Shown: positions 12,985 through 56,030 of the stretch, piece after piece
Layout: the number at the start of each line of letters is the position of its first letter
How positions within the stretch are numbered: position 1 is the first letter of the stretch
Source: Kiritimatiellia bacterium
GTDB taxonomy: Bacteria; Verrucomicrobiota; Kiritimatiellia; RFP12; UBA1067
DNA: 64,000 bases
Assembly (NCBI GenBank): GCA_017454745.1
Contig: JAFTCL010000069.1
Location: forward strand, 17,826 to 81,825
Direction: 5' to 3'
Notes under the pieces: generated by a model
What the model was told of the DNA's origin: nothing
The model's input: the letters and a program-made list of their open reading frames with translations, nothing else
Database searches by the model: none
Position numbers and translations under genes: made by a program

Positions 12985-12990
12985 AGCAGA

Positions 12991-13893
12991 TCATATTCCG
13001 CGTTCCTTGCGTACTTGCGCCCAAGCCTCGTTCAAACGGGCCATCTGTGCGTTGGCCCTGTCAACCAGCTCTTCCGACAACCCCTGCGCCCGCAAGTGGT
13101 CGGGATGAAGTTGCTTGGCCTTATTGCGGTAGGATTTTTTCAACTCATCGTTGGTCGCGTTTCGCGGGCATCCCAGAATCTGATACGGATCCATTTCTCG
13201 CTCGAAGGCGGACGAGCCGCTATTGGTATGTTTCCGTCCGCCACCGCCGCTTTTACTTGAACCGCCTACGTCGCCGCCATCGTCAAAGCCGCGCCGAGAA
13301 CACTGCCAGTAATACACATAACCGTCAATGTTCAAATATCGCGGCAAATTCTTCAGCATCTCCCGTTCGGCAGTCGACAGTTCACCGTCGGAAACCGCCA
13401 AGTCCCAAAGAATGTCGTAAACCGTTGTGCGCAGATTCTTGGCGGTGCAGCGCTCAAATTCGGCGGCGTATTCGTAAATGGTACGGATGTCGTTTTTCGT
13501 CAAACGGAACACTTCAACGCAATACTTGCGTTTTTCCTCGTCCAACCCCAAACGGGAGAACGCCAGTTCGCAATACTGTATCTCTTCCTTGGACACCCTG
13601 CCGTCCGCTTTCGCCAGCTTGGCAAACATGGAGGCAAGCGCGGCCAACACCACCAACTCCGACTCCACGCTACCGCCACTAAATTTACGGCGGCGTTTGA
13701 CGTCATCTGATTCGCTGCGCGGATTTCCGGCGGAAGAGCCGGTATTCGCGGCATGCGTACCATCTCCCAACACGCTGAAATCAGAATTGTGGTTCTCTAT
13801 CAAGTTGCCTACAACCGCGCCGATGATGCCGCCGAAAATTCCGCCGATTCGAAAGCCGGCATACGCGCCGATTACAGAACCCCACCAACCCAT
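12991..13893 (-). CDS. djlA: DjlA-type co-chaperone (N-terminal Gly-zipper TM segment, TerB-like domain, C-terminal J domain)
   Basis: N-terminal MGWWGSVIGAYAGFRIGGIFGGIIGAVVG. TerB-like middle (LAKADGRVSKEEI...AVSDGELSTAEREML). J domain DPYQILGCPRNATNDELKKSYRNKAKQLHPD. Confidence 0.8.
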   Translation of the reverse strand: MGWWGSVIGAYAGFRIGGIFGGIIGAVVGNLIENHNSDFSVLGDGTHAANTGSSAGNPRSESDDVKRRRKFSGGSVESELVVLAALASMFAKLAKADGRVSKEEIQYCELAFSRLGLDEEKRKYCVEVFRLTKNDIRTIYEYAAEFERCTAKNLRTTVYDILWDLAVSDGELSTAEREMLKNLPRYLNIDGYVYYWQCSRRGFDDGGDVGGSSKSGGGGRKHTNSGSSAFEREMDPYQILGCPRNATNDELKKSYRNKAKQLHPDHLRAQGLSEELVDRANAQMARLNEAWAQVRKERGI

Positions 13894-13911: not shown

Positions 13912-15042
13912 CTACACCTTAAAGAAAATTTTGTGCCGATACAAAAAATACAGGAAAAGCCAAACCACCGCCATATACCCGACTGTTGAGACCACTTCGG
14001 TGGCGGTTTTGGGGAACAGCCCGATTACCCCGCGGAAGAAAAAGCGGTTAGCGCGTTCAAAATCGATAAACCGGCTGGCCATGTAAATCGTGATAGAGTT
14101 CATGCCGATTACCCGGAAATAAAGCGTCCACTTTCTCAATTCCAGAACATCGATAATCCAGTAGAAAAGCGCGAACATCGCCAGCGAATACGAAGCCGCC
14201 GCCAATACAAAGGTGCTTGACCACAAAGCTTTGTTTATTGGATACCAGCGGCCCCACACTACAGCAACCACCCCAAAAACAAGTGCCGCGCCAAACATAA
14301 AGAGCGTCTTCTTTCCGCCGGACAAACCACTCTGGCGGTTGCGCACCAACGCACCGGTGAACATCCCCAGCAACGCGGTGGCAATCGCGGGAATCGCGCT
14401 CAGCAACCCTTCGGGGTCGTATTTTGCATTGTAAATATGGTTCGGGAAGAACGTCCGGTCAAACCAACAGCAAATGTTTCCCTCGACCGTAAACGGCGAG
14501 GCGTTCGGATGATCCGGTGCGGCGAAAAACCGCGTCAACGCCCAATAACCGGCCAGAATCAACAGCGTAACCGCGATTCTCGGCCATATTTTTTTCACCC
14601 GCGTCCAGATCAGCGCGGCGAACATCCACGCCAAACCGATACGCCCCAGCACGCTGAAAATCCGCAGGCGGGCGAAATTAAAATCCAGCATGCCGTTGTA
14701 AACCATACCCAATAAAAAGAGAACCAAGCCGCGCCGTATTATGCGCAAAGTGATTTTTGTTTCGCTGCTGCCGTTATCGCGCTGCTTTGCCAACGAAAAA
14801 GGAAAACTGATTCCGGCGATAAAAAGAAACAGCGGGAAAATCGTGTCATGGTGGGCAAAACCGTCCCAACGCACATGCGACATCTGTTTTACCAGCCAGC
14901 ACTCCGGCGAACCGCACAATTTGCAAACCCTCACCACCAGTGCCGACAAACCGGTGATAAACAACATGTCAAATCCGCGCAAAGCGTCTAACGACCACAA
15001 TCTGCCTTCTTTAGTCTGTTCCACGATCATTCCCCCTGTCAT
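13912..15042 (-). CDS. DUF5009 / heparan-alpha-glucosaminide N-acetyltransferase (HGSNAT)-like polytopic membrane acyltransferase
   Basis: RLWSLDALRGFDMLFITG near the N-terminus, HVRWDGFAHHDTIFPLFLFIAGISFPFS, and about 10 further TM segments. The start is ambiguous: ATG 15042 (overlaps the upstream TAA by 1 nt), ATG 15030, or GTG 15024 (GGGGGA 6 nt upstream). The 5' extension to 15144 in the ORF track overlaps the upstream gene and is not used. Confidence 0.8.
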   Translation of the reverse strand: MTGGMIVEQTKEGRLWSLDALRGFDMLFITGLSALVVRVCKLCGSPECWLVKQMSHVRWDGFAHHDTIFPLFLFIAGISFPFSLAKQRDNGSSETKITLRIIRRGLVLFLLGMVYNGMLDFNFARLRIFSVLGRIGLAWMFAALIWTRVKKIWPRIAVTLLILAGYWALTRFFAAPDHPNASPFTVEGNICCWFDRTFFPNHIYNAKYDPEGLLSAIPAIATALLGMFTGALVRNRQSGLSGGKKTLFMFGAALVFGVVAVVWGRWYPINKALWSSTFVLAAASYSLAMFALFYWIIDVLELRKWTLYFRVIGMNSITIYMASRFIDFERANRFFFRGVIGLFPKTATEVVSTVGYMAVVWLFLYFLYRHKIFFKV

Positions 15043-18026
15043 TAGTCCATGAGTTCCCGGCCATTCCGTATGGCCTCGTACACCCGAAGCTCCTGCGTCG
15101 CCCGCTGCCGGTAACGTTCTTCGCGTTCCCGGTCTTTGGCGCAAGGCACAAAACCGTCCATGTCAGCGCGTGGCTGTTCTTGCAATCGTTCGGCGCCCAC
15201 CTTGACCAGCCCGAGCACGGCATCATACGCCTCTCGCTGCGTGTTTTTATCCAATTTGGACAATATCCTGCTGCATTCCGGACGACCGAAATCAAGCTGC
15301 GCCCGTTGCCGCGCCGAATGCGCGTTGGCAATCCTTCCTCCGGTCAATTTCATTATCCGCTGGAGTTCTTCCTTGGTAAGCGGACTGCGTCCGCCGGGAT
15401 TGTTGGGATAAGCCACCTCGTAGCAGGGATAATAAGGCGCGTTGATATCGATCCAGGTTACGATCCGGTCCAGTTCCTCTGGCGAGAGTTTAACGTTGGC
15501 GTGTCCGCCTTCCAACTCGCGCACCAGCTTCGACACGGAGCTCCCCCACGAACGGGCGGGACGAATCTCCGCCGGACCGCCCCCGACGCAACTGATCGCC
15601 CCCAGCGCCCACAGGTCAACGTATGAAACATTGAAGTATGTGTCACGCCCGCCGGACAGGTTAAGTTTATCACCGGCCGGTTTTCCATAATCGTGGCATT
15701 TCACGCAATGGCGGTCAAAGACCGGCTGAACTTCTCGCTGGAACGAAAACAGTCTCGGTTTACCGTACCAACCGTTCAACTTGCTGGCTTTGCGCGACAT
15801 TGCAGACGGCAACCGCGAAATCGGCGGAACGTTCCCCACCCGGCTTTCGTGGCAACCAACGCATCCGTATGTTTCGCCCGGCTGGACATAGGCGCCTGAA
15901 CGCATCGACTGCACCATCTTGCCATCGGCGTCCAACGCCTGGAAATAAACGAAAGTGTTTCCCGGCACCTCGAAATACGCGCTGCCGTCGTCCGCCACCG
16001 GTACCGTGCCCAGAATCCGCTTGTTCTCGAAGCTGTGCCAATTCATCGCCGCAGCCATTTCGCCGTGTCCGTACCATCCCGTAGGACCGGTCCAATTGCG
16101 CTTTTCCGGAGATTCGACAATTCGCAGCGACTTGATTTCGCCGCGCTTCACCCCCTCCATGTGGGTGCCCACATACACGTCCTGCAGATAAAAATAACCC
16201 GGCCCGTTGGGATGGGAATAATCCCGCCGCGTCGGAATCACCGGGGCTGTTTTGGACGCCCGCACCGGCATTGGGCTCCAACACCCCGGCGCCTCAAAAT
16301 AAAACGGCACTTCGTTGCCGAAACGATCCACATAAGCCAATCCCGACTCCTCGCCACGCCCAGTCATCCAGCTGCACAGGAAATGGCCGTCGTCCAACGG
16401 AAACGGGTCGGAGAATTTCAAACCGATACTTTTAGTCGAATCAAAATCTTCTCCGCCGGTGTGGATGCGGTTGCGGTAATCCGCCGGCCACGTCTGAACC
16501 ACCGGGGATTTCCCGTCCACCCCGAGATTACGGTCGATTACGCCCAACGCGCCCCAAGGCCGGTCGTGGCAAGATCCCAGCACCGCAATCACCCGCGAAG
16601 TGCTGCCGCCAATCGGACGGGCATTAATCACGCAACCGGGACTGGTGGTGTTGTTCCCCCAAAAGATCGCGTGCCCGGTACCGTCGGGGTTGCATACCCA
16701 CAACCCTTGGGCATCGCCGAAATTCCGGTCCACATATTCCCAGCGGTCATACAGCACCCTGCCGTCCGGCAACACCGACGAGTGTCCCTCGAACAGCGTC
16801 GATTTGCCAATTTGGATAATGTTGGCACCGTTCGGACGCATACGGAACAGGTTGCACATGATATGACGGTTGCACATGCAATACTTCGGTTCGCGGGTGG
16901 AAGAAAACACGATGTCGCCGTCCGGCAGCCACGCCGGATCAATGTCCGTCACACCTTTGGCGAAGGTGAGCTGGCGCAAACCGCTGCCGTCAACATTAAC
17001 CGTCCAGATCTTGTAGTCCTCATCCTTGCCGGTACGCATGGCGAAAACCACTTTTGTGCCGGAGGAGTCCAGCTCCGGGTCGCGCACTGTGCGCCCCGGC
17101 AACTCCGGCACCACCACCGTGACTTTGCCGGTATTTACGTCCAGTAATTTCAGTGCGCCTTGGGTGACGTATTTGGCTTCGTTAATCTCGCCGCATTGGA
17201 AAAGGGTGGCGGTGTTGTGGTGATCGGAACGGTACTGCCCCCGGGTGGTAAAGAGAATCAGCTGACGGTTCACCAGCGGATTTTCCTTCACCAAAGCCTC
17301 CGCCTGCAACTTTTCCAAACCCTCCGCATCGCCGGCTTCACAAGCGCGGTCGTATGCGGCGCGGAATTCCGTTGCGGGATATTCGGGAAACCTTTTTCCC
17401 AGCTCCTCAAACGCCGCCGGCAATCCGGCAAAACGTTTCATCGCCGCCAGATTTTGGGTTTTTCGCATATCATCAAAATGCTTCGCGGTGGCGGCAGGGT
17501 CGATCCGCCCCTCGCAAACCACCTCGTCCACGGTAACGTGTCCCCAACCGCCGGTCGCCCCGTCGAAGGCACGGAAGAAAACCGGTTTGCCAACCGATTC
17601 CGGCACTTGAATTACCTGCGGATACATGTGCTCGTGGTTGCGTCCGCGCGCAGAAGCCACGACTTTTCCATCGATTGAGCATACTGCGAAGTACACCTTC
17701 TCGCCAGCGCCGCCGCCGACCCGCACCTTAACCTCCGGAGCCGACAGCACCACCACCGGCGAATCTACGATACCGATGAAACCGTCGTACGGGGTTCCGT
17801 TGTCGCGCTCCAAAGTGGAGAGAAACCATCTGCCTTCTTTGGAATAGGGCGATTGCGGAGCGTTGTGCTCCCGTTCCCGCCCGCAAACCAGCTGGCCGAA
17901 CTTTCCTTCCACCACCCGCCAACCCTGCAAATCGCCGCTTTCAAAATCAAAGCGAACCGTCTCCGCCAGCGCCGAGCCAGCGCGGCATAACGTCGCCGCA
18001 AGAACCAACAACCATAACTTTGCCAC
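15042..18026 (-). CDS. Exported PD40-type beta-propeller protein with two CxxCH haem-c motifs (HzsA-like architecture), paralog 1; N-terminal jelly-roll-like module
   Basis: GTG start with an AAGGA RBS and signal peptide AKLWLLVLAATLCRAGSALA. TolB/PD40-like blades (DPAWLPDGDIVFSSTR, LPDGRVLYDRWEYVDR). CVGCH at 15849-15863 and CVKCH at 15693-15707 (VQPVFDRHCVKCHDYG, PSCyt1-like). Clear paralogy to 18421-20928 and 25248-28226. Confidence 0.85.
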   Translation of the reverse strand: MAKLWLLVLAATLCRAGSALAETVRFDFESGDLQGWRVVEGKFGQLVCGREREHNAPQSPYSKEGRWFLSTLERDNGTPYDGFIGIVDSPVVVLSAPEVKVRVGGGAGEKVYFAVCSIDGKVVASARGRNHEHMYPQVIQVPESVGKPVFFRAFDGATGGWGHVTVDEVVCEGRIDPAATAKHFDDMRKTQNLAAMKRFAGLPAAFEELGKRFPEYPATEFRAAYDRACEAGDAEGLEKLQAEALVKENPLVNRQLILFTTRGQYRSDHHNTATLFQCGEINEAKYVTQGALKLLDVNTGKVTVVVPELPGRTVRDPELDSSGTKVVFAMRTGKDEDYKIWTVNVDGSGLRQLTFAKGVTDIDPAWLPDGDIVFSSTREPKYCMCNRHIMCNLFRMRPNGANIIQIGKSTLFEGHSSVLPDGRVLYDRWEYVDRNFGDAQGLWVCNPDGTGHAIFWGNNTTSPGCVINARPIGGSTSRVIAVLGSCHDRPWGALGVIDRNLGVDGKSPVVQTWPADYRNRIHTGGEDFDSTKSIGLKFSDPFPLDDGHFLCSWMTGRGEESGLAYVDRFGNEVPFYFEAPGCWSPMPVRASKTAPVIPTRRDYSHPNGPGYFYLQDVYVGTHMEGVKRGEIKSLRIVESPEKRNWTGPTGWYGHGEMAAAMNWHSFENKRILGTVPVADDGSAYFEVPGNTFVYFQALDADGKMVQSMRSGAYVQPGETYGCVGCHESRVGNVPPISRLPSAMSRKASKLNGWYGKPRLFSFQREVQPVFDRHCVKCHDYGKPAGDKLNLSGGRDTYFNVSYVDLWALGAISCVGGGPAEIRPARSWGSSVSKLVRELEGGHANVKLSPEELDRIVTWIDINAPYYPCYEVAYPNNPGGRSPLTKEELQRIMKLTGGRIANAHSARQRAQLDFGRPECSRILSKLDKNTQREAYDAVLGLVKVGAERLQEQPRADMDGFVPCAKDREREERYRQRATQELRVYEAIRNGRELMD

Positions 18027-18073
18027 TTGCCAATCCTTTTCAAAACTGCCAAACCGTCAAAAGCAACAACGCT

Positions 18074-18102
18074 AATATACACCATCCAACTTCATATTGC
18101 AA
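18074..18102 (-). promoter_or_regulatory. Candidate sigma70-like promoter for paralog 1 (TTGCAA-N17-TATATT on the minus strand)
   Basis: The minus strand reads TTGCAA (18102-18097), a 17-nt spacer, then TATATT (18079-18074). This lies about 48 nt upstream of the GTG start at 18026. Confidence 0.35.
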
Positions 18103-18263
18103 CACTTGAGACGAAGGAATTGTAATCGAACGTCTTCCGTGTGGTGCGGCGCGTTGGGATTATTATTTGCTGCAGTGATCAACGGCTTGTGCCCTATCCC
18201 GAGAACAATCGGAATCTGCACCGTCCTACCCGCGAGCGTATTATCGCTCACCGTACGTGGCGG

Positions 18264-18431
18264 ATGCTGCAGGAAGCACGGGACAAGATCGCGGAGATGG
18301 AAGAGACGGTCAATGACCTGAAGCTCCGCCGGTACGAGCTGAAGAAAGCCCGGCTGGCGACCCTCCACCGCTACGCTGAATTGACGGACATGAGCCAAGA
18401 CGTCTCTGCCGGGACATCCCCTACTCCATGA
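18264..18431 (+). CDS. Candidate small coiled-coil protein (55 aa) or 3' remnant of a lost gene
   Basis: MLQEARDKIAEMEETVNDLKLRRYELKKARLATLHRYAELTDMSQDVSAGTSPTP. Hand-counted third-position G+C is about three quarters (42/55), similar to bona fide genes here, and lower upstream of the ATG. It converges on paralog 2 and overlaps its 3' end by 11 nt. No recognisable family. Confidence 0.25.
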   Translation: MLQEARDKIAEMEETVNDLKLRRYELKKARLATLHRYAELTDMSQDVSAGTSPTP

Positions 18432-20928
18432 TTGGCTCGACCACCTTGCCGTCCCGCTGATCTTCCGGCTTGTGGTCATGCCCGATATACTGCGCGTTGG
18501 AATCCATCCATAGTATGAGACGCGCCCATTCGTCCATCGTCAATGCGACATCGTGATGTCCCTTGCGCAGCATCTTATAAAGCGGCGAGCCGAGTGCGCC
18601 GGTCGTGCAGGGTAGGGAGTAGGATGGTTCCTGGAACCCCTCGCCGCCACCCTGATACTTATGGGTAATCTGGTATTCCCTCGTGAAGAAATGGACATGC
18701 GGACGAAGCGACATATACGAGGTACTCAACCCCATCGGATTCTTCCGCCAATCTCCAGCCCGCAGATCCGGCGCCTTCGCGTCGCGCTTCTCGCCGTGGC
18801 ATTTCACGCATTTGGCGTCCAGCACCGGCTGTACCAGACGGGGATAGGAAAAGGGCTTGGCCCCCTCGATCGCCGGGGCGATCTTGCTGGGGGAGCGCTT
18901 CACCGCCAACGGTGTCGGCGTTGTTCCTGTCTTGAACGATCCGGGCCGCCGTTCGTGGCACCCGTTGCACATCAACCGCTCGCCCGGCTTGACATAGGTA
19001 TCGCTCCGCATGTTCTGCACGCACCGGCCTTCACCGTCCAACGCCTGGAAATAGAGCGGCACATCCACCGGTGCCTCGAAATAGGCGCTGCCGTCCGACT
19101 CGACGGGAACCGTCCCCAGACACTGCCGCGCGACCTGAAGATACTCGCCGCCCAGACGCGGCTCGCCGTTGATAGGGAAGATCTTCGGCAACACCTGCCA
19201 GACCCGGAGCGCCTTCACTACCGTCCCCTCCGGGAAGGGCTCCTTGGCGTTGTAGACATTCATCAGCCCGATCAGCGCCGTCTTGGGCAACTGATTGTCG
19301 GGGATCGGATCGGGACGCTTCCCATCGGCATCGGCGGGCCGACCGCGCAGGCTCTGCTCCGCCATCTGCGGCGGAATCTCGCGCGGTCCCAACGGGATCG
19401 GATCGAGGCAGGAGATTGTCGGATGGGTATAAAGTCGCGTCTTGTTGCCGAATGCGTCCAGCAGCACAATCGAGTATCGCCGGATGGAGGGCGGATTGTA
19501 GAAACCGTTCCCGTTCCCGTCATAGACGCAGAGGTAATACTTCTCGCTCAACGGCCAGGCGGTCGCGTAGGAACCGCTCGAACGACCTTTCCCCGCCTCG
19601 CTCTCCGCAAAGGGCTGTTCCGGCGTCAGCCGCCGGATACAGCTCATCTCGCCGTCATCCGGCACCGTCGGGTCGATGAGAACGAATGACCCGCACGCCC
19701 ACCCGTGGTGCGGCGCGGCGGTCGCCACATACTTCTGGCTGCCGGGAATCGACCGGACATTCATCTCCATCAAGGGGCCGCTCCCCCAACGGAGGCGCGT
19801 GTTGCCGTTGACCTCGCGAGGATCACGTCCGTCCGGTGTCGTAGTCCAGGCGTGGTGCGCCTGGCTGTGCCCGCGATCCACATAATCCCAACGGGTATAG
19901 ACGATCATCCCCGCGTGGTTGACACTCGGATGCCACTCGTTGGTTTCGTGCGGTGAGAGCTGGACGATATCGGAACCGTCGGCGAACATCGAGTGAAGCG
20001 TGAAGGTCGGGACAGGACGTCCGTGGCACCTGCCGAATCCGCCCCGGCGCTCGGAGATGAATGCGACTCTGCCGTTGGGCAGCCAGCACGGATCGAAATC
20101 GTTCACCGTCCCGGTCGTCAGCTGCACCAATCCAGAACCATCCGCGTTGCACTTGAAGATATGCCAAACTGTGTCGTCCTCCCACTTACGGATATCCGGT
20201 TTTCCCCGCGTGTAGGCAAAAAGGATCTCCTTCCCGTCATACGACACATCGGGCGAGAGATAGCCTCCGCGCCCGAGTTGCTGTCCCTTCCACGTACCCG
20301 CCTCGATTGTCCGCCCGTACAGAATGTCTCGTGCGACTGGATGGTCGGAGAAGGGGTTCTCCAGCACATACAGGCCATCACCAAAGCTGGCACCCCGCAA
20401 CGTCGCGTGGAAGCCGAAATACTGGTCACACATATGCGAGCCGCCGTGATACTCGTCAAACGGCTTGGGCTCATGTGTCACAAACACCAGCCGGTCGATC
20501 CCCTTCAAAAGCGGATTGGAAAGCGCCAGTTTTCGATTCACGGCCATTAGCCGCGAGAAGAAGGGGAATCGCATCTCCGCCCAATCGCGGAAGGGAACCT
20601 TCGCTGTTTCCGAGGCCAACGCATCCATCTCTGTCTTGGCCCAGCCGACATCCACACCCGCCTCGGCCAGATCATCCGCCAACGCGCGGGTCCGACGGAA
20701 GAGCACATCCAGCGGATCCTTGTCCACGGGAAGAATCGTCGCCGCCACATTCACCGCCTGATCGGGATTCCGTGACGGCAACCGTTTCCAATTGTCGATA
20801 TCCCGGCGGATAAGATCCCATGCCTCATGGGTATCCGGCGCGAAACCTCCCGCGTCGGGATATTCCGCAGCCATTCCGGCAATCGCCACGCATCCCCACA
20901 CAAATAACCACCAAATATCAATCCGCAT
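18421..20928 (-). CDS. Exported PD40-type beta-propeller protein with two CxxCH haem-c motifs (HzsA-like architecture), paralog 2; helical N-terminal module
   Basis: ATG with a GGAGGAG RBS and a signal peptide. DPCWLPNGRVAFISERR and YTRWDYVDR. CNGCH at 18955-18969 and CVKCH at 18796-18810 (VQPVLDAKCVKCHGEK). Confidence 0.85.
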   Translation of the reverse strand: MRIDIWWLFVWGCVAIAGMAAEYPDAGGFAPDTHEAWDLIRRDIDNWKRLPSRNPDQAVNVAATILPVDKDPLDVLFRRTRALADDLAEAGVDVGWAKTEMDALASETAKVPFRDWAEMRFPFFSRLMAVNRKLALSNPLLKGIDRLVFVTHEPKPFDEYHGGSHMCDQYFGFHATLRGASFGDGLYVLENPFSDHPVARDILYGRTIEAGTWKGQQLGRGGYLSPDVSYDGKEILFAYTRGKPDIRKWEDDTVWHIFKCNADGSGLVQLTTGTVNDFDPCWLPNGRVAFISERRGGFGRCHGRPVPTFTLHSMFADGSDIVQLSPHETNEWHPSVNHAGMIVYTRWDYVDRGHSQAHHAWTTTPDGRDPREVNGNTRLRWGSGPLMEMNVRSIPGSQKYVATAAPHHGWACGSFVLIDPTVPDDGEMSCIRRLTPEQPFAESEAGKGRSSGSYATAWPLSEKYYLCVYDGNGNGFYNPPSIRRYSIVLLDAFGNKTRLYTHPTISCLDPIPLGPREIPPQMAEQSLRGRPADADGKRPDPIPDNQLPKTALIGLMNVYNAKEPFPEGTVVKALRVWQVLPKIFPINGEPRLGGEYLQVARQCLGTVPVESDGSAYFEAPVDVPLYFQALDGEGRCVQNMRSDTYVKPGERLMCNGCHERRPGSFKTGTTPTPLAVKRSPSKIAPAIEGAKPFSYPRLVQPVLDAKCVKCHGEKRDAKAPDLRAGDWRKNPMGLSTSYMSLRPHVHFFTREYQITHKYQGGGEGFQEPSYSLPCTTGALGSPLYKMLRKGHHDVALTMDEWARLILWMDSNAQYIGHDHKPEDQRDGKVVEPIME

Positions 20929-21303
20929 CTTCTTCTCCTCCCATTTATCGTAACGTTCCAGCCTGTAACTTCCAACGCAAAGGGAGAGGGATCGTTTAAC
21001 ACTCCCTCAACTCTCAAACGCTTAACCCTCACAACTTCCTTAGAACGACGCCTTCAGATTGATGCCGCCCCACAGGCAGTCCTCATCCCAACCGGCAGCC
21101 TCGTTCGCCCGCGCGTCCGTCCACAGCAGGGAGGTCCACGAAAGTAACGTACACCGCCCCACCCAAAACAATTGCACACGTGACACATAACACTTTCTTC
21201 ATCTCGTCTCATTGTGTTCACTTTCACACCTTCACGGAATAGAGAAATGATAGCGGAAAACAATCCCCTCACACAATACCCCTCTTTAACGCCACACAGA
21301 AAA

Positions 21304-23460
21304 TCAGCGAATGATGAGGACAAATCCTCCGACTTCCGTATATCCGAAAAGTTCGAGTTCGGAGACATTACCCCAGAAGTTGATACTGTCATCTGGATTT
21401 TTGACGAAAACATACCGATATGCAATCGATGAAGTACCAATGACCTCACTCCACTGCATCTGGCCGTTGGCTGTGAAGGGTTCAGAGATGACATCGTAGT
21501 TCGTGCTCCAGTTCTCGTCGTCGTTCGACCCACAAACGACAGCACCTGTTAGGCGACCCCAGATGTCGGCGTTGGTGCTGTTGCGCGTGCAGGCACGGGC
21601 CGAAGTCACCACCCGCGGGCAACGGAGATCGACGCCCAGCGCCACGCCCTTGCCGCTCGCCCAGTCCACATTGTCCGCCAAATCGCAACAGGTATCCGTG
21701 TTGCCGTCGAACGCAAACCGAGGATGAGCCATCGCGTTATAAGGATAACCCTTGTAGATTACCGAAACACCCGGACGCAGTTTCGTCTTATCGGACGAAT
21801 CGCGCTCAAGCTGACGAATGTCACCGGCCAACACAGTATGCGAACGTTCGCCTTCCTGTTCTCCGGCCGTACAGGAGACGGCATAATGGTAGACGCGACC
21901 CGACCTAACCTGAGTGTCGATAAACTCCGTTGTCGAGGTTTCGAGGGTGGCGACAGGAACCCACTCAACGGTTCCGTGTTCACGACGATAAACCTTATAG
22001 CCGTCCACGCGCACATCGGAGATCGCCGCAGCCGACCATGTGAGCTTATACCCGCCAGCTGCCTTCTCGACGGCCAACGCCGTCGGCACGGCCGTTACCA
22101 TCGAACAGAACTCAATTTCCGCAATGCTGCCGTAACTGCCGTCGGGAGCATGATAGCGGATGTAACGCGTAGCGACCGGATTGTCAAGCACTACCGTCAC
22201 CACCGTCCGCTCCGGCGGCTTCGCAGCAATCGTATGGATCGTCTGCACGTTTACCATAAATTCGGAGTCTTCAGCCGTCTGAAAATAACCGTCCTTTACC
22301 GTTCCCTCGCCGCCTAGACCATTACTATTATTGCGCCGCCACACATAGCGGATTGCCGTGATGTGACGAGATTCGCCGAAATCCTGTCCGAACCAGGCGT
22401 TATTGGTCTCGGCGTCCGCCTTCGCTACATCAACAAATGACTCCATGTCACCGTCAAAGCTGTGCGTTCCGTCTCGTCCTGCACTATAACTGGACGTCGT
22501 GCCTATGTAGGCCCCCAGATTCCATACTCGGTACGGCAGCGTCCATTCAATCCATTCGCTTGCACCCACCGGCGTTGCGGCCCGGAGGCGATAGATGACA
22601 GCATCTTTCGTCGCGTCGGCAACGCGTAGCAACGAGTAGTCGCTGTTTGTCTGGGTGAAGTACAGGGCGGCGGCGGATTCCCACGTCTCTCCCGCCATCT
22701 TGCTCTGGAGCAGGAAGGTCGTACCAGGCTGGGCCTCGGTTAGCAGAACGTTGACAAAGCCGTTGAACCGATCAACGCATTTGACCGTCGGCAACTGTCC
22801 GGCCTCGCCATCGGCCGGTAGATTCTCGGCATCATAGCCGAGAAATTCGAGTTCGGTGCAATTGCCGCACATTGTACCCGGTACGTCTCCAGACGTATAG
22901 GAGACAGGGCCTATGATACGGAAATAAGTGAAGGCCTTGAACGCACCTGAAACGGGATTGGTCACACGCTGTAGAACCAGCTGAGCTTGTTGTGTTCCAA
23001 AGTTTGCATCGTCTGTGATTACGTGAATCGTTTCCGCATCCGAGAAATCCGCGTGAGTGGCACCCTGGATGAGACAACCGTGTAAGCGGTGGCGCCTACC
23101 CGAACGGCAGTTGACGCGAATCGCGGTTACGATCTTTGGACGGGTGAATCCTATACCAGCCCAGCAGCCGCCGGCCTGTGCCGCCGTGCCGGGCGGGTCA
23201 AAGTAATTGGAGGAGACGGTCGTGTTTCCATCGAAGATCTGCTCCTTCGTATGTCCGTTGTTGTTCCAAGACCCTTCCGTTCCGTAAACAACGAGCTTGC
23301 CCTGCTCATCGACGATCAAGTCACTGTTGGACGGTGTTGCATTGTCGTTCAACAGTTCGCCCGTCCAGTCATATGCCAAAGCCGACGAACCGAAAACAAT
23401 CGTCAATGCCACCGTTACGCAGATTGACGCGAACACAGTGCGAATCATCTTAGTTTTCAT
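21304..23460 (-). CDS. Secreted protein with three F5/8 type C (discoidin)-like domains and one fibronectin type III domain
   Basis: Signal peptide MKTKMIRTVFASICVTVALTIVFGSSALA. Three FDG(N/D)-type discoidin-like modules (IFDGNTTVSSNYFDPP, HSFDGDMESFVDV, FAFDGNTDTCCDL). Fn3 segment (PTALAVEKAAGGYKLTWSAA...GYKVYRRE...YHYAVS). AGGAAGGA RBS. Confidence 0.8.
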   Translation of the reverse strand: MKTKMIRTVFASICVTVALTIVFGSSALAYDWTGELLNDNATPSNSDLIVDEQGKLVVYGTEGSWNNNGHTKEQIFDGNTTVSSNYFDPPGTAAQAGGCWAGIGFTRPKIVTAIRVNCRSGRRHRLHGCLIQGATHADFSDAETIHVITDDANFGTQQAQLVLQRVTNPVSGAFKAFTYFRIIGPVSYTSGDVPGTMCGNCTELEFLGYDAENLPADGEAGQLPTVKCVDRFNGFVNVLLTEAQPGTTFLLQSKMAGETWESAAALYFTQTNSDYSLLRVADATKDAVIYRLRAATPVGASEWIEWTLPYRVWNLGAYIGTTSSYSAGRDGTHSFDGDMESFVDVAKADAETNNAWFGQDFGESRHITAIRYVWRRNNSNGLGGEGTVKDGYFQTAEDSEFMVNVQTIHTIAAKPPERTVVTVVLDNPVATRYIRYHAPDGSYGSIAEIEFCSMVTAVPTALAVEKAAGGYKLTWSAAAISDVRVDGYKVYRREHGTVEWVPVATLETSTTEFIDTQVRSGRVYHYAVSCTAGEQEGERSHTVLAGDIRQLERDSSDKTKLRPGVSVIYKGYPYNAMAHPRFAFDGNTDTCCDLADNVDWASGKGVALGVDLRCPRVVTSARACTRNSTNADIWGRLTGAVVCGSNDDENWSTNYDVISEPFTANGQMQWSEVIGTSSIAYRYVFVKNPDDSINFWGNVSELELFGYTEVGGFVLIIR

Positions 23461-23666
23461 CCTTTATTCCTTCCTTGTTTGGTTAATGATTAACTCCAAC
23501 CAATTTCAAATTGGCATTGGTAAGTCGATGATCATGCGTTTTCTCCTGCGGGAGGTTCCCACTCGAATGACGGCGGCTACACTTTGCCGTTGTGCTGGGC
23601 ACAAACGGTTTGTCGTTGGTTCCAAATCGCCGAGGAAATAAAGTCCGTCCGTCCTGAAAATACAAA

Positions 23667-23699
23667 ACGACAGGCCGCAAACCGTCTGCGACCTGTCGT
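23667..23699 (-). terminator. Candidate terminator downstream of the Rpn gene
   Basis: Stem ACGACAGG / CCTGTCGT (23667-23674 / 23692-23699) with an inner CGCA/TGCG pairing. On the minus strand it is followed by TTTGTATTTTCA. Confidence 0.4.
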
Positions 23700-23755
23700 C
23701 TGAAATGGTGTAAAACCGCACGAAAAGCGCGTTTACTGCGTTTTCTCTTAAGTTA

Positions 23756-23768
23756 CCCCCCCCCCCCC
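23756..23768. repeat. Homopolymeric C13 (G13 on the minus strand) tract in an intergenic region
   Basis: Direct count: 13 consecutive C at 23756-23768, 89 bp beyond the Rpn stop and about 296 bp upstream of the discoidin gene start. Confidence 0.95.
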
Positions 23769-23856
23769 GCCATCTGCGCAACGCCGTCCAAACGCGTTCT
23801 CCACGCGCCTGTGGCAATCCACCCGCCGATGTTATGAGTTGTGGGTATCATCGTGG

Positions 23857-24759
23857 TCATTTGAGCTTTCCGATCTCCGCGGCGGAAAGGCCGGTCGCCG
23901 CCGCGATCTGCGCGTCAGTAAGATTCATGGCCTTTAGGTTCCGAGCTGTCTGGAGTTTGTCGTTACGCAACATCTCAACCGCCGCGTCGCGCTCCGCCAT
24001 TGCCGCGTCGCGCTCCGCAAACGCCCTGTCCATGTAGGCTTTCTTTGTCGCCTCGATGCTGACGCGGTCCCAGAATCCGTCGTATGCGGCCCTCTCCGCG
24101 TCGTTGAGTCCAGACTCCCTCACGATCTCCAGTGCCTCACCCGTCTGCGGATTGTCGAGAAGGTCCTGCGACACCTCGTCCGCGCCGTCAGGGTCGATCT
24201 CGGTCAGGAACCGGAGCCAGAGAACCTGCATCTTCTTCTCGGTGAAGTTCTTCGCCTTGAACTTGGGGAGCTCCACGAACACAAGGTGCAGCCCGTCAAG
24301 CACCTTGTCGGAGCGGAGGTCGTGCACGAGATGGTAGTAGTGGTAGTACCCGTCCAGTTCCGGCTCGAAGGTGTGGTTCACCAGACTCAGGGAATAGACG
24401 GGCTGGAGCATCTGGTAGTTGTCGCCCTTCGGCAACTGCCGGACATACGCCTTGGCGGAATTGAGCAGAACCCTCTGTCTGAAGTCGGGGAACCATTCCA
24501 TCTGCATCTCGACGATGAACTTGCGCCCGCCCGTCTCCCCGCACCGCACATCGACGATGGTGCTCTTGCCGAGCGGCGTTTCCGGCACCATTTCCGGCGT
24601 CATGTATTCAATCGACTCGATTTTCTTGCCCTCGTCAAGGGGCAGCAGGGCGTTAAGGAGGCTCATGACGAGATTCTTGTGCTCGCCAAAAACCTTCTTG
24701 AAAGTCACATCCGCCTTTGGATCAAGGTACTTTGCCACGTCTTTTGCCTCTGCTTCCAT
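23857..24759 (-). CDS. Rpn-family recombination-promoting nuclease / PD-(D/E)XK putative transposase
   Basis: KYLDPKADVTFKKVFGEHKNLVMSLLNALLP, IVDVRCGETGGRKFIVEMQMEWFPDFRQRVLLNSAKAY, and a C-terminal helical tail (ARNLKAMNLTDAQIAAATGLSAAEIGKL) are typical of the Rpn / T_den_put_tspse family. Confidence 0.85.
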   Translation of the reverse strand: MEAEAKDVAKYLDPKADVTFKKVFGEHKNLVMSLLNALLPLDEGKKIESIEYMTPEMVPETPLGKSTIVDVRCGETGGRKFIVEMQMEWFPDFRQRVLLNSAKAYVRQLPKGDNYQMLQPVYSLSLVNHTFEPELDGYYHYYHLVHDLRSDKVLDGLHLVFVELPKFKAKNFTEKKMQVLWLRFLTEIDPDGADEVSQDLLDNPQTGEALEIVRESGLNDAERAAYDGFWDRVSIEATKKAYMDRAFAERDAAMAERDAAVEMLRNDKLQTARNLKAMNLTDAQIAAATGLSAAEIGKLK

Positions 24760-25247
24760 TCATGGGCATGTCTAATTGAGGAAACAAGAATACTTTATCA
24801 AAATCGCCGTGGGATTGCAAGCGCGAAAGCGTGAAAATCAAACCCGTGTAGAAAGTCAAGCGCGACTTCGCCGACAAGCCGGTCTGAAGTCTCACGCAAT
24901 TCTTACCTCTGTTCTGTCATCATTCCTAATTCCTGTCCCCCGTAATCGCAACTACGCTTTTATCAGCAATTTTAGTAATTCCGTTTACTAAATTCTACCG
25001 GTCTTCCTCCAAAAACAGGATGCAATCACGACCGGTTTCGCGTATAGTGTTGCCATTAACACTGGATGAGGATTATAAGAATACGCTACTGCTACTGTAT
25101 GATGGTTCTGCTTCTCCCGCTTTTCAAACTTTTCACGCAGAAGAATGCGGAAAGAACGGTAAATTTCGCTTGTAGTTCCTGATTACCAACGCCACCGGCT
25201 ACTCCCTAATCTCTAACCCCTATTCACTAACCTCTAACCCCTGTTCT

Positions 25248-28226
25248 CTACCATATCACATCCCGGAAATCCACGTCATTCCGGAGGTCTAGCATTGGCC
25301 GCGCTTTTACGATTTCATCAAGAAGCCGTTTGTAATCAGGATCGTCCTTGCCCGAAAAAATACCCGCAGAGATGCCTTCCTTCAACCAAGAATTACGTTC
25401 CGGATGGTCGTAACGGACATAAAACTGGTACGGGAGTTTCACATCCTTTCGTTTCTCAATCTCATTCTTAACGGCGGTAATTGATGATGGCAATATTCTC
25501 CGGCAACCGCGCAAATCATCCTGCCGCGATTGCGATGTGCCGTAATACGGGACATCAAGGTCGATCCAAAGATGAATCCGCAACCGCTCATCCGCAGTTA
25601 AAGACACACGGGGTTTCCCGTTCTCCGCCGGATGACCGGATGCGATGACTTGCGACAGTTTGCTCACCGGGCTTCCCCACGTCTTCGGAGTAATCCACAA
25701 AATGTTTTCTTCCAATCCGTTGAAGGTGGGAATCCAACTGGTGTAAGGGTTCCTGCCAAAGTTTTTCATATATGGTTTGACATCACCGCCGCTTTCCGCC
25801 CCCGTACCTTTCCGCGCAAGATTTTCGTACGCGACATTGAAATAGTCCGTACGGTCGCCGGTAAGTTCAGGTTCGGGTGCGCCGTCTTCGCCGCTGTGGC
25901 ATTTAACACAATGGCGGCTGAGAACCGGTTGCACAACGCGGGCGAAACTGAAGCCGTCGTCACTGCCCCACGGCGGAGGCACGAGCTTGGCCGGCGGACG
26001 TTGCGCGGCCATTGACTTGCCGATCTGCACCGGAGAGACCGAAACGTAATTGCGGTTGGCATGGCAACCGATGCAGCTCTGCCGCTCCCCCGGCATAAAA
26101 TGCGTAAAAGTGCGCATGCGCTGCACAGCACGCCCCTCCGCGTCAAGCGGCAGAAAATATATCGGCACGTTCGCCGGGGCCAAAAAATGCGCACTGCCGT
26201 CGGCTTCCACCTCCGCGAACCCCCAAACCCGTTTCGGCGCATAGGTCGCGCCGCAGCTGACTACCGGGAATTGGAATCCGAATTGGCGCTTGTCCGTCTC
26301 GGCACGGATATCCTTTTCCATTTCCTGCACAACGGCGATTTTTTTGATTTCTCCCGGCTGAACGTAGCCCTCCAAACCAATCCGCACATCCTGCACCACG
26401 ATTTCCGCGAACGGCCCGATTGATTTGTCGCACTGTTCCGCCCGCTGCGCCAACGGTTTGGCGCGAGGTTCAAGCGGTTGGGGAGAATACCAGCCCAGAC
26501 CATCCTTAGGAGCTTTCACAAGGGTGTGAACGTTATCGGAATCATACTCGCGCAGTTGAATCTCGCCGGCACGTGAAACAAGATACCGGCCACCGTCAAC
26601 CGGGAAAGGCGTCGTGTACGGACCGCGGATCCCGTTACCGCGTATGCCATTTTCCACGGGCGGCACTTTCACCTCCGGAGTGAGATTTCGGATCGCCTGC
26701 TGCGCGTTGCCGCCAAGCGATACATCCACCAGTCCCACCGCCCCGTTGCACGGCCCGTTATGCGAGGTCATGATGCAAAGGTAAACACCGGAACGTCCGG
26801 GAACGTCATGCGCGAACATAAATGTCGCCGGCGAAAGCACTCTGTTACCAAAGATGCCGGATAGCCCGGTTCCGTCAGGTTGAATCGCCCACAGGCTTTG
26901 GATTGGGATCGCGGGACGATCCACATATTCCCAGCGGCTGAAGAGAATCCGCCCGTCGCCCATAACGGTAGGCGTGAAATCGGTAAGATAGTTTGCCGAA
27001 AGCCGCACCGCGTTTTTACCATCGCCGTCGGCGCGGTAAAGTACGGGCGAGGTAGAGGTCCAACAATAAGCGAAAGCCGGTTTACGGTCGGAGGTGAACG
27101 CGATACCGCCGTCAGGAAGCCAACAGGCGTTCTGGTTGTTACAAGTCCCGTGAATCACCTTCTCCAACCCGGATCCGTCCGAATTAATGCACCAGATGGC
27201 AAACGGTTCGCTCATGCTGCGCTTTCCGCTGAAAAGGATTCTTTGTCCGTCATAAGACACTTGCGCATCGATAATAATGCCTTCGGAGGCGTCAACCAAG
27301 CGCCTAACCACGCCTTTTTCGAAGTCGCAAACATATAAACCTCCGCCTTTAGACAAGCCTTCTACATGGTAGGTATAAACGTGGCTCGGATGAAGCGAAC
27401 GGCGTTTCACCAACACCATCGCTCTGATTTCGCTTTCCACGGTTTGCGGTAACGCCGCGTTGAGCATTGGAGTCGCGACGTTTGGATCTTGCCCAAAGTT
27501 TGCCACTATTGTGCCGGCATCGTTACCGGCATGTAGAACCGCAGTTCCAACCGGGAGGAGCCTATCCTCTTTGCGGGCGTGGCGAAAACGAATCTTGAGC
27601 GCTTTGAGATTGGCCGCCGCTTCGGGAAGCGTGGCTTGGGTAGTCACATATTTTTTCCACCCCCCGGTATAAGGCAGAAAAACGGTCGCGATCAACCGTT
27701 GCGGATTTTCGGCATCGAAAAGTTCTATACATGAATCCTGCATTCCCGAAGAGTGGTGGAAAGAAATTTGCCGCGAGGGAGGTTCGGAGAAATCAAACCC
27801 TCGGTAGACACAACTTGCGCCTTCACGCAAATGGCCGATTTCCAATCCCCATTTGGTCTGATAACCGTCACCAAGTCCTTGACGTTCAACCGCGTCCGCC
27901 CCCTGAACGGTCTTCCCGTTTGAAGTTATTCCCGCAATGTTTACCAGACATTCTCCGGGACATGAAACAACTTCATCGGAATAATTTTCAAGCAAAATCA
28001 GTTCCGCACCTTCTTGAGAAAGCCGCCCCGCCGGACCGCCAACCGAACCGTCCTGGTTCAAAATACTGTCCGTGAACGGATTCACGCCGCTGAACCAGGA
28101 AAAAGGGATTTGCACACTCCAAGTTCCGTCACCTTGTTTTGTCCAGCCCTTTACCGGATGGGCAGAAACCATGGCGACTACGAATACCCCGGGCAAAAAA
28201 ATCGCGGCAAACTTATTAATCGTCAT
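25248..28226 (-). CDS. Exported PD40-type beta-propeller protein with two CxxCH haem-c motifs (HzsA-like architecture), paralog 3; N-terminal CBM6/35-like module
   Basis: I prefer the ATG at 28226 (GAGGAG 10 nt upstream, then signal peptide MTINKFAAIFLPGVFVVAMVSA) over the ORF-track start at 28475, which runs through the upstream gene. NACWLPDGGIAFTSDRK and FSRWEYVDR. CIGCH at 26061-26075 and CVKCH at 25896-25910. Confidence 0.85.
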   Translation of the reverse strand: MTINKFAAIFLPGVFVVAMVSAHPVKGWTKQGDGTWSVQIPFSWFSGVNPFTDSILNQDGSVGGPAGRLSQEGAELILLENYSDEVVSCPGECLVNIAGITSNGKTVQGADAVERQGLGDGYQTKWGLEIGHLREGASCVYRGFDFSEPPSRQISFHHSSGMQDSCIELFDAENPQRLIATVFLPYTGGWKKYVTTQATLPEAAANLKALKIRFRHARKEDRLLPVGTAVLHAGNDAGTIVANFGQDPNVATPMLNAALPQTVESEIRAMVLVKRRSLHPSHVYTYHVEGLSKGGGLYVCDFEKGVVRRLVDASEGIIIDAQVSYDGQRILFSGKRSMSEPFAIWCINSDGSGLEKVIHGTCNNQNACWLPDGGIAFTSDRKPAFAYCWTSTSPVLYRADGDGKNAVRLSANYLTDFTPTVMGDGRILFSRWEYVDRPAIPIQSLWAIQPDGTGLSGIFGNRVLSPATFMFAHDVPGRSGVYLCIMTSHNGPCNGAVGLVDVSLGGNAQQAIRNLTPEVKVPPVENGIRGNGIRGPYTTPFPVDGGRYLVSRAGEIQLREYDSDNVHTLVKAPKDGLGWYSPQPLEPRAKPLAQRAEQCDKSIGPFAEIVVQDVRIGLEGYVQPGEIKKIAVVQEMEKDIRAETDKRQFGFQFPVVSCGATYAPKRVWGFAEVEADGSAHFLAPANVPIYFLPLDAEGRAVQRMRTFTHFMPGERQSCIGCHANRNYVSVSPVQIGKSMAAQRPPAKLVPPPWGSDDGFSFARVVQPVLSRHCVKCHSGEDGAPEPELTGDRTDYFNVAYENLARKGTGAESGGDVKPYMKNFGRNPYTSWIPTFNGLEENILWITPKTWGSPVSKLSQVIASGHPAENGKPRVSLTADERLRIHLWIDLDVPYYGTSQSRQDDLRGCRRILPSSITAVKNEIEKRKDVKLPYQFYVRYDHPERNSWLKEGISAGIFSGKDDPDYKRLLDEIVKARPMLDLRNDVDFRDVIW

Positions 28227-30106: not shown

Positions 30107-30925
30107 TTAATCACCCTCCTTCTTGAGCCGACCGGTGGCCAATTCGCGAAGCCGGATCAGCCAAATACACAACACGTACATGAACATCATCGGGACGGCC
30201 ATCACAATTTGCGAAATCGGGTCCGGCGGCGTGAGCACCATCGCCATCGCGAAAATAACCACCACCGCCACGCGCCATTGTCCGATAAGGGTTTTAGACG
30301 ATATCATTCCAAACCATCCAAGCACCACCAGCAACAACGGCACCTGAAAAGCCAGGCCGAACGCCACCAGGGTTTTCATCACCAGCGTGATGTAAGGCAT
30401 GGTGTTGAAAAACGCCAAATCCAATCCCATCCATTGGTTGACTTTCATCAGCACGTCAATCGCGATGGATAAGGTTGCGGCGTATGCCATCCAAACACCG
30501 GACAAAAACAATACCGTGGAAAAGAAAAGCGAAAAAAGGATTATCATCCGCTCGCTGCGCTTCAAACCGGGGAAAACAAAGCGCGAGACAAAAAAGAACA
30601 GTAGCGGCAACGCCAAGACCGTACCGCCCCAAAGCATAATTTTGAAGAGCACTTCGAAGCCGCCGGTGGCCTCCATCGTCTGCAGCGACATGTGCTCGGC
30701 AAGTTTGGCGTAACGCTCCTGCGTCAGCAGTTTGGCGATCGGGGCTTGCAGCCATCTCAACACCGTAGGGGCAAAGGGGATGATTACGATGATGCTGGCT
30801 ACCCACGTGATGCCGCAATGGATCAAGCAATCCCGCAGATCGATCAAATGCTCGATAAACGGTCGCGGCGGATCGTTGTATTCGTCCTCGCCGTCGGCGC
30901 CCATAAAGAAACGGCCGATTTTCAC
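30107..30925 (-). CDS. tatC: Twin-arginine translocase subunit TatC
   Basis: N-terminal FIEHLIDLRDCLI (the H-L-x-E-L-R-like TatC motif), six TM segments, about 270 aa. Its start overlaps the upstream tatA/B stop by 4 nt, and its stop abuts the hisB ATG (TAAATG). Confidence 0.88.
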   Translation of the reverse strand: MKIGRFFMGADGEDEYNDPPRPFIEHLIDLRDCLIHCGITWVASIIVIIPFAPTVLRWLQAPIAKLLTQERYAKLAEHMSLQTMEATGGFEVLFKIMLWGGTVLALPLLFFFVSRFVFPGLKRSERMIILFSLFFSTVLFLSGVWMAYAATLSIAIDVLMKVNQWMGLDLAFFNTMPYITLVMKTLVAFGLAFQVPLLLVVLGWFGMISSKTLIGQWRVAVVVIFAMAMVLTPPDPISQIVMAVPMMFMYVLCIWLIRLRELATGRLKKEGD

Positions 30926-31452: not shown

Positions 31453-31475
31453 GGTGCAACTTCCAGCACAAAGAA

Positions 31476-31507
31476 GGTTTTCCGCGCCATTTAAGGCACG
31501 GAAAACC
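31476..31507 (-). terminator. Candidate rho-independent terminator after pal
   Basis: 9-bp stem GGTTTTCCG / CGGAAAACC (31476-31484 / 31499-31507). On the minus strand it is followed by TTCTTTGTG. Confidence 0.5.
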
Positions 31508-31527
31508 GGGAAAAACTAACTCTTGTT

Positions 31528-32121: not shown

Positions 32122-32166
32122 GGAATGATTCCTTTGTTTGTTTTGTTAAGGTTGCGTGTGAAGATG

Positions 32167-55997: not shown

Positions 55998-56030
55998 GCG
56001 GCACTCCCCTGAGGCTATTAAGAACAAAAA

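Follow-up and report, generated by a model that had tools for sequence, protein, structure and literature searches.

Three exported dihaem c proteins with a hydrazine synthase alpha-like core in a Kiritimatiellia bacterium, candidates for redox chemistry on glycans

What would proteins built like the alpha subunit of hydrazine synthase (HZS) do in a heterotrophic bacterium? The question is raised by a 64,000-nucleotide stretch of a Kiritimatiellia bacterium (contig JAFTCL010000069.1 of assembly GCA_017454745.1, positions 17,826 to 81,825, forward strand; hereafter the window), in which three minus-strand genes, abbreviated P1, P2 and P3, encode exported β-propeller proteins that each carry two haem-c attachment motifs (Table 1; residue numbers of family sites are those of P1). 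The first-pass annotation of the window read them as paralogs, likened their domain order to that of the HZS alpha subunit (HzsA), and proposed a candidate novel periplasmic redox enzyme family in a carbohydrate-degradation context. We find that the three genes are ancient paralogs of a very large family of Sec-exported c-type haem proteins, mostly from the Planctomycetota–Verrucomicrobiota–Chlamydiota (PVC) bacteria. Two conserved c-haem attachment sites, export and an HzsA-like core are established, as is the frequent presence of glycan-binding or glycan-cleaving modules in the family, which probably carries out redox chemistry linked to polysaccharide breakdown.

P1–P3 contain the complete three-domain core of HzsA. 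All three exceed the gathering score (26.6) of the HZS_alpha profile PF18582, with E = 6e-34 and 116.9 bits for P1, 1.5e-19 and 70.7 bits for P2, and 2.9e-23 and 82.7 bits for P3. Against the sequences of the Protein Data Bank (PDB), P1 returned 5C2V_A, the HzsA chain of Kuenenia stuttgartiensis, as its sole match (E = 6e-16), and a 12-sequence family profile matched the same chain (E = 3.5e-29) over the propeller, middle and C-terminal regions. AlphaFold gave confident models for P1 (predicted local distance difference test score (pLDDT) 88.4, predicted template modelling score (pTM) 0.83) and P2 (pLDDT 85.7, pTM 0.88). Foldseek placed 5c2v_A first among solved structures for both, with E = 4e-31 over 808 columns and a target-normalised template modelling score (TMt) of 0.58 for P1, and E = 1.5e-29, a query-normalised score (TMq) of 0.56 and TMt 0.60 for P2. 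These alignments span about 810–830 columns, and the second-best match, TolB, is weaker by some 20 orders of magnitude in both modelled paralogs. The domain order named in the first-pass annotation is thus real by profile, by PDB sequence match and by fold. Identity with TolB itself was rejected on the NCBIfam equivalog scores (19.9–29.6 bits, cut-off 343); a TolB/PD40-type propeller is all that is shared, and TolB of the Tol–Pal system has no haem domains. A proposed resemblance to the planctomycete cytochrome PSCyt1 did not hold, since PF07635 had no match at E ≤ 1 in the full proteins or at E ≤ 10 in the isolated C-terminal domains, which excludes membership by profile. The only matches of these isolated domains were to class-I cytochrome c models below threshold (Cytochrome_CBB3, E = 6e-4 to 4e-3, 18–20.5 bits, gathering score 27). 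The haem α-II domain of HzsA has been described as a typical type I fold (PMC12607021).

Pairwise BLASTP identities were 30% (604 columns, E = 1e-57), 31% (622 columns, E = 3e-74) and 30% (686 columns, E = 5e-62), and every shared block quoted in support of paralogy was found in the translations. A recent tandem duplication was rejected, because the paralogs are only ~30% identical to one another as against 55–79% to their own orthologs in other Kiritimatiellia; the nearest homologues, proteins of Kiritimatiellae/Kiritimatiellia bacteria (P0001 and P0121), reach 97%. Translation of P2 is preceded by GGAGGAG 6 nt ahead of the ATG. The P3 frame can be extended to a GTG at 28475, but the ATG at 28226 is the likelier start, as it has GGAG ~10 nt upstream and yields a hydrophobic signal peptide. 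The predicted export of all three proteins was upheld: each begins with a signal sequence judged hydrophobic by eye, and the AlphaFold models of P1 and P2 show an N-terminal helix at residues 2–18. The absence of a twin-arginine motif fits Sec export, as expected for c-type apocytochromes.

The CxxCH motifs number exactly two in every protein and lie where the first-pass annotation had placed them, and the variants CxxxCH, CxxxxCH and CxxCK are absent from P1, P2 and P3. Composition predicts by chance only ~0.01 CxxCH per protein, so two at equivalent positions in three proteins are not a chance occurrence. Conservation was assessed across 465 family members aligned to the family profile, where the attachment residues are effectively invariant in 458–462 homologues: C722 is kept in 462 of 462, C725 in 459 of 461, H726 in 461 of 461, and C774, C777 and H778 each in 458 of 458. 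Conservation extends beyond the motifs to M708 (462/462), R709 and E718 (98%), R/K729 (97%), C385 (459/465, 99%) and H842, present as His in 432 of 455 (95%), and within the propeller R378, R428, W429, Y431, D433, W443, D448, G449, N458, G492 and D498 are kept in at least 97%. Haem I is canonical, with His726 of its CxxCH as the presumed proximal ligand, and Met708 is a candidate for its sixth ligand or for a pocket residue; haem II is probably bis-His, coordinated by His778 and His842. The profile alignment places H842 no more than one residue from His772 of HzsA, in a part of low confidence.

Does an HzsA-like core imply HzsA-like catalysis? We take the zinc site of HzsA to consist of His587 and the propeller residue Cys303, and its haem α-II to be bis-His with His772 as distal ligand. 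The iron ligand of HzsA is Tyr591, four residues after the motif His, and His587 binds zinc (PMC12607021, PMC12758564). The present proteins share with 5C2V chain A the order of propeller, HZS_alpha domain with CxxCH and class-I cytochrome c-like domain with CxxCH, the alignment of both haem motifs, a conserved His at or beside the His772 position, and a TM-score of ~0.6. They differ in having only 15–19% identity to it, no Tyr591 ligand, other pocket residues, no β or γ subunits, a heterotrophic Kiritimatiellia host, further modules for glycan binding at the N-terminus and a C-terminal tail on P1 and P3. Position +4 after the CxGCH His is V, N, T, E, L or R and never Tyr-dominated among 452 family members; it is V in P1 and is not Tyr in P2 or P3. 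Around the pocket, the profile alignment sets VQTAL...RPYHGRICSGCHY of HzsA against VQxMRS...PGExxxCxGCHExR of the family, so that 'MR' and 'PGE' stand where HzsA has 'AL' and 'PYH'. The hydrazine_alpha equivalog model NF052339 gave 77.1, 38.1 and 42.2 bits for P1, P2 and P3 against a cut-off of 800. No CCP_MauG (γ-like) or β-propeller partner occurs among the scanned open reading frames (ORFs) of the window, and no β or γ genes are among the commonest families of neighbours, two genes on each side, at ~70 homologous loci. A true hydrazine synthase, or cryptic anammox, was rejected on the equivalog scores, the Tyr591 position and the absence of β/γ subunits nearby; the statement that nothing else in the window is anammox-like was upheld by the window scan. 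When the propeller segment of P1 was run against the PDB with phmmer, no alignment to HzsA was obtained, which leaves the HzsA Cys303 region unaligned with Cys385. When a 111-aa stretch of Kuenenia HzsA was searched against a 5.8-billion-protein collection, five fragments (83–153 aa) and no full-length HzsA came back, which looks like a limit of the word index or of the collection.

The family extends far beyond this locus. A profile search of 1.84 billion cluster representatives (50% identity) retrieved 3,891 proteins at E ≤ 1e-30 and 38,849 at E ≤ 1e-10, giving a family of at least 3,891 clusters, and a scan of one genome per species found at least 565 relatives. Among the matches listed are Kiritimatiellia, Lentisphaerae/Victivallales, Verrucomicrobiota (including the cultured Persicirhabdus sediminis), many Planctomycetota, a few Hydrogenedentota, Armatimonadota and Anaerolineales, and metagenome-assembled genomes (MAGs) from rumen. 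Most members outside Kiritimatiellia and Verrucomicrobia (Planctomycetota, Lentisphaerae, Armatimonadota) carry a third CxxCH in a C-terminal tail, ~150 residues past the second. P3 and its close orthologs retain the tail and have lost the motif ('RRCASCH' has become 'KRKDVK'), and P2 is tailless. The proposal of a novel family is therefore overtaken, because Pfam already collects these proteins and distant non-anammox HzsA homologues have been described (PMC12758564). The accompanying remark that no function is known outside anammox stands, as we found none characterised for non-anammox members.

The link to glycans is carried by domain fusions. Among 66 P3-like N-termini, DUF7402 was found in 48, discoidin in 35, CBM6 in 2 and malectin in 1; the CBM6 (carbohydrate-binding module (CBM) family 6) of P3 recurs in its 78%-identical ortholog (locus L002). 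Roughly 45 of 120 P2 orthologs bear NPCBM and one a sugar-binding domain of the glycoside hydrolase (GH) family 2 type, while fusions to GH5 and GH43 occur among P1 orthologs. The 36 longest representatives include fusions to GH43, GH123, GH28, GDSL esterase, PA14 and FGE-sulfatase domains; three of them are fused to a dihaem domain of the cytochrome c peroxidase (CCP)/MauG type, two of which also match RoxA-like cytochrome c. By analogy, the CCP/MauG fusions echo the pairing of α and γ in HZS and bear on the origin of that enzyme. In domain architecture the tie to glycans is strong and recurrent, and it rests on fusions, not on conserved neighbours.

These features suggest to us, with moderate confidence, that the proteins would be glycan-targeted periplasmic haem-c oxidoreductases. 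In such a mechanism the N-terminal module, CBM6 in P3 and a jelly-roll in P1, would, within the periplasm or on the cell surface, tether the protein to a poly- or oligosaccharide. The substrate, be it sugar-derived or a small molecule, would enter a site between invariant propeller residues (R378, C385, R428, W429, Y431, D433, W443, D448, N458 and D498) and the haem I pocket (M708, R709, E718 and R/K729), and electrons would be exchanged between haem I and a soluble partner, possibly via haem II. In some genomes this partner may be an adjacent GFO/IDH/MocA or flavin adenine dinucleotide (FAD) oxidoreductase; hints of redox partners come from GFO_IDH_MocA neighbours, an FAD_oxidored neighbour and the CCP_MauG fusions in 3 of 36 representatives.

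Several observations weigh against this reading. In a Pfam scan of 210 ORFs, two on each side of the ~70 homologous loci, no partner gene recurred besides another paralog, which rules out a conserved operon partner; the commonest neighbour families were the HZS_alpha paralog (8), sulfatase (4), PQQ_2 (4) and GFO_IDH_MocA (3). The frequencies of neighbouring carbohydrate-active enzymes (CAZymes) and sulfatases look like PVC background. In the window, the only sequence covered for this, no cytochrome c maturation genes were seen. Axial ligation by both Met708 and His842 would make the two haems six-coordinate, which favours pure electron transfer over catalysis at the iron. Haem α-II of HZS is reportedly too distant from the other haems for efficient electron transfer (PMC12607021), so an internal relay from haem I to haem II cannot be assumed. 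Many of the organisms that carry the family, rumen MAGs included, are strict anaerobes. Finally, sugar binding by the P1 N-terminus is assumed from the fold class of its modelled β-sandwich, for which Pfam gives no match.

The same survey bears on the carbohydrate context proposed in the first-pass annotation, which survives through the domain fusions, absent from that annotation, and fails as a consistent CAZyme neighbourhood, since apart from a further paralog no partner gene recurred across the ~70 loci. Individual loci vary. Among Kiritimatiellia orthologs, P0016 adjoins GDSL, GH43, SASA and beta-helix genes, and P0123 has genes of carbohydrate esterase (CE) family 15 and GH29 upstream (29 nt gap) and a GH141-like gene downstream. 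Synteny is not retained at the P2 ortholog of 79% identity (P0122, locus L087), where a PF12831 FAD_oxidored gene (12514–13878) lies 15 nt downstream, followed by GH92; this oxidoreductase is a possible redox partner, seen once. The NPCBM-bearing P2-type orthologs P0233 and P0215, on two unrelated contigs, both have DUF6259 upstream and a BD-FAE/COesterase-type esterase directly downstream, and a GFO/IDH/MocA gene adjoins P0233 and not P0215. Unlike these, the remaining ortholog loci examined have no CAZymes alongside. Genes of the URO-D family (methyltransferase-like) were also observed near P1-type orthologs (L084/L085 and L088), and radical-SAM genes near a P1-type (L084/L085) and a P2-type ortholog (L089); a second HZS_alpha paralog, which bears discoidin domains, also lies on L084, as does a RhaT rhamnose transporter.

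The best-surviving alternative to a glycan-targeted oxidoreductase, which we nevertheless regard as unlikely, is a non-catalytic dihaem electron carrier tethered to glycans or particles, its propeller serving as a docking platform and its electrons coming, for example, from periplasmic sugar dehydrogenases (GFO/IDH/MocA, FAD enzymes) or passing on to extracellular acceptors. Two low-spin six-coordinate haems would agree with the invariant Met708 and the 95% conserved His842, and the case for a carrier would strengthen should Met708 prove to be the sixth ligand of haem I. The C-terminal domain resembles class-I cytochrome c, the third tail CxxCH of most non-Kiritimatiellia members would make a three-haem wire, and GFO_IDH_MocA or FAD_oxidored genes adjoin a few loci. 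Pontiella strains reduce anthraquinone-2,6-disulfonate (AQDS) and metals and encode periplasmic or extracellular c-cytochromes, whereas Kiritimatiella glycovorans encodes none (PMC7356697), so c-cytochrome content differs between lineages. However, a 350-residue propeller with about ten invariant polar or aromatic residues and an invariant free cysteine exceeds what a carrier needs, the equivalent haem α-I of HZS is catalytic and five-coordinate, and no conserved partner gene was found at the ~70 loci.

Less likely still is a non-redox role in which the propeller acts as a lyase, hydrolase or lectin and the haems are structural or regulatory. The GH, CE and CBM fusions are typical of CAZymes, and the propeller fold also matches oligogalacturonate lyase 3pe7 (E = 1.8e-5) and lactonase 7ris, with a weak Pectate_lyase22 match at E = 0.11; these likenesses are, however, generic propeller matches far weaker than that to HzsA, and 95–100% conservation of the haem motifs and candidate ligands over thousands of diverged sequences is hard to square with a structural cofactor. 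HZS-like nitrogen chemistry, in which haem I would bind hydroxylamine, NO or a similar N-oxide, either to detoxify it or for N–N/N–O chemistry, possibly on amino sugars, is very improbable: whole-chain homology to HzsA, the few fusions to CCP/MauG-like dihaem modules (the HZS γ fold) and the coupling of P1 to a glucosamine N-acetyltransferase-like gene speak for it, whereas the hydrazine_alpha scores far below the cut-off, the non-Tyr position +4, the differing pocket, the lack of β/γ genes in the window and among the commonest neighbours, the occurrence of the family in rumen fermenters and the same conclusion reached by Hagglund et al. for other homologues (PMC12758564) speak against it.

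A broader form of the glycan-targeted oxidoreductase reading is tentative and, on present evidence, somewhat doubtful. Here the family would be a new haem-c-dependent class of carbohydrate-active redox proteins, an unrecognised 'auxiliary activity' (AA) family of the PVC periplasm, strict anaerobes included, that oxidises or reduces a glycan-derived substrate at the propeller/haem I site; it would also be the stock from which anammox HzsA was recruited by opening haem I (Met to Ala and a His-to-Tyr ligand switch).

Table 1. Positions of the three paralogs, their haem motifs, domains and candidate functional residues, and of genes beside them in the window.
Feature	Nucleotides	Strand	Residues	Remarks
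P1	15042..18026	-	994 aa	ORF position as in the first-pass annotation
P1 signal peptide			1-21
P1 N-terminal beta-sandwich			22-175	MAM/jelly-roll-like; fold match E ~7e-5
P1 helical linker			177-253
P1 TolB-type propeller			~256-600
P1 HZS_alpha beta domain			629-727	Beta domain of the model spans 609-722 and terminates in CVGCH
P1 helical, class-I cytochrome c-like domain			741-870	With CVKCH
P1 helical tail			885-987
P1 Cys385	16872..16874	-	385	Unpaired propeller cysteine, near-invariant
P1 Met708	15903..15905	-	708	14 residues before haem I; aligned residue in HzsA is Ala
P1 haem I CVGCH	15849..15863	-	C722-H726	C-terminal end of HZS_alpha domain; aligns with HzsA CSGCH
P1 haem II CVKCH	15693..15707	-	C774-H778	Cytochrome c-like domain; aligns with HzsA CAMCH (haem alpha-II site)
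P1 His842 (in 'GGH')	15501..15503	-	842	Candidate distal ligand of haem II
P2	18421..20928	-	835 aa	Minimal architecture: signal peptide, helical N-terminal region, propeller, HZS_alpha (599-659), cytochrome c-like domain; no tail
P2 haem I CNGCH	18955..18969	-	C654-H658
P2 haem II CVKCH	18796..18810	-	C707-H711
P3	25248..28226	-	992 aa	Signal peptide, CBM6, propeller, HZS_alpha (625-722), cytochrome c-like domain, tail without third haem motif
P3 CBM6	27579..27857	-	124-216	PF03422 E 3.2e-8; 34.4 bits, gathering score 28.9
P3 haem I CIGCH	26061..26075	-	C718-H722
P3 haem II CVKCH	25896..25910	-	C773-H777
NagX/HGSNAT-like transmembrane glucosamine N-acetyltransferase	13912..15042	-		NF046061 E 5.8e-81, model 3-369/369; 272 bits, equivalog cut-off 480
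Exported protein with two discoidin (F5/8 type C) domains	21304..23460	-		F5_F8_type_C E 5e-19; 375 nt upstream of P2; context only
PD-(D/E)XK transposase gene	23857-24759	-		PF12784 E 4e-40

Within the window, the discoidin protein and the HGSNAT-like acetyltransferase named as neighbours in the first-pass annotation are indeed adjacent, but the glycoside hydrolase genes (GH2, GH43, GH78 and GH3) lie at least 5 kb from the paralogs, with housekeeping genes for UvrB, a TerB-DnaJ protein, TatAC and pyruvate dehydrogenase E1 intervening. P1 and the acetyltransferase gene overlap by one base in the sequence TAATG at 15040–15044 (minus strand), which joins the TAA stop of the former to the ATG of the latter; the overlap implies translational coupling, and from this arrangement the two genes are almost certainly co-expressed. 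The pairing was not found beside the P1 orthologs checked in other genomes. Because a transposase gene lies between the discoidin gene and P3, the three paralogs do not form one unbroken cluster. P2 and P1 are separated by 394 nt, in which lies an unannotated plus-strand ORF of 96 aa (18141–18431), with a coiled-coil-like C-terminal half (…MLQEARDKIAEMEETVNDLKLRRYELKK…), that may be a gene remnant.

Elsewhere on the minus strand, an envelope cluster at 30107–33372 comprises TatC, TatA/B, an OmpA-family (Pal-like) protein and, next to the OmpA-family gene, a TolB-type PD40 propeller protein (32167–33372) that is distinct from the three haem proteins. A 4254-aa ORF at 43263–56027, with BspA-type leucine-rich repeats, CARDB, Big_5 and FG-GAP-like repeats, presumably encodes a cell-surface protein; it provides the only FG-GAP match in the window, is unrelated to the paralogs and lies more than 15 kb from them. 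A PF12831 FAD-dependent oxidoreductase fused to a Golvesin_C domain is encoded at 56031–58175. No tRNA or Rfam matches were found in the window.

How do these proteins relate to systems already described? Fungal cellobiose dehydrogenase, and the AA12 pyrroloquinoline quinone (PQQ) pyranose dehydrogenase joined to an AA8 cytochrome and CBM1, are fusions of a sugar dehydrogenase and a cytochrome with a CBM. They resemble the present family in combining a CBM, a catalytic domain (a six-bladed propeller in AA12) and an electron-exporting cytochrome, and differ in being unrelated in sequence and in using haem b with flavin or PQQ, for which no site is evident in P1–P3. In concept, the closest counterpart among PVC bacteria is the class of PSCyt-domain proteins with CBMs described from Verrucomicrobia and Planctomycetes by He et al. 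in 2017 (PMC5615132). These, too, are c-type haem proteins that are exported and occur as many paralogs in PVC bacteria, with NPCBM, CBM6, PA14 or discoidin fusions and a suspected carbohydrate role, and the haem II domain of the present proteins has by eye a similar 'VQP(I/V)L..xC..CH ... W(I/M)D.NA' flavour. Beyond the lack of a PSCyt1 match, P1–P3 differ in pairing this domain with a TolB-type propeller and HZS_alpha, not with PSD/DUF1549/DUF1553.

In 2025 Hagglund et al. described distant non-anammox HzsA homologues, called few, that lack the catalytic residues and fall into clades I–IV, from Aquisphaera, Thermogutta, Novipirellula, Syntrophobacter and Opitutus terrae (PMC12758564). Those proteins and ours are alike in being HZS_alpha proteins outside anammox whose haem I is canonical and which have lost the catalytic residues of HZS. 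Theirs, however, were chosen for an adjacent fused β–γ (CCP-like) homologue, often with a CRTAC1/FG-GAP gene, and we find no such partner in the window or among the commonest neighbours at the ~70 loci; clade I lacks His772 and clades II and III lack the haem II site (PMC12758564), whereas the family described here keeps both the haem II motif and the His. New relative to that study are a stand-alone, CBM-decorated and massively expanded form (at least 3,891 clusters), fusions to sugar-binding and GH domains, presence in Kiritimatiellia, a conserved Met/His/Cys set and an optional third haem. Literature searches brought up no other account of this form, and nothing of relevance that ties hydrazine-synthase-like proteins to Kiritimatiellia or to glycoside hydrolases.

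A possible de novo origin has been discussed for HZS, to which 'few' distant homologues were ascribed. Thousands of full-length α-like proteins in heterotrophic PVC bacteria offer a concrete pool of ancestors from which a route to the anammox active site can be tested. It also follows that HZS_alpha or hzsA-type matches in metagenomes from rumen, lakes and soils can stem from the present family and should not be taken as anammox potential. For the PVC bacteria themselves, polysaccharide degradation is now ascribed almost wholly to hydrolases, lyases and sulfatases, and the existence of a large haem-c family that bears CBMs points to unrecognised redox steps or electron routing in this process, which would include those in anoxic guts and sediments.

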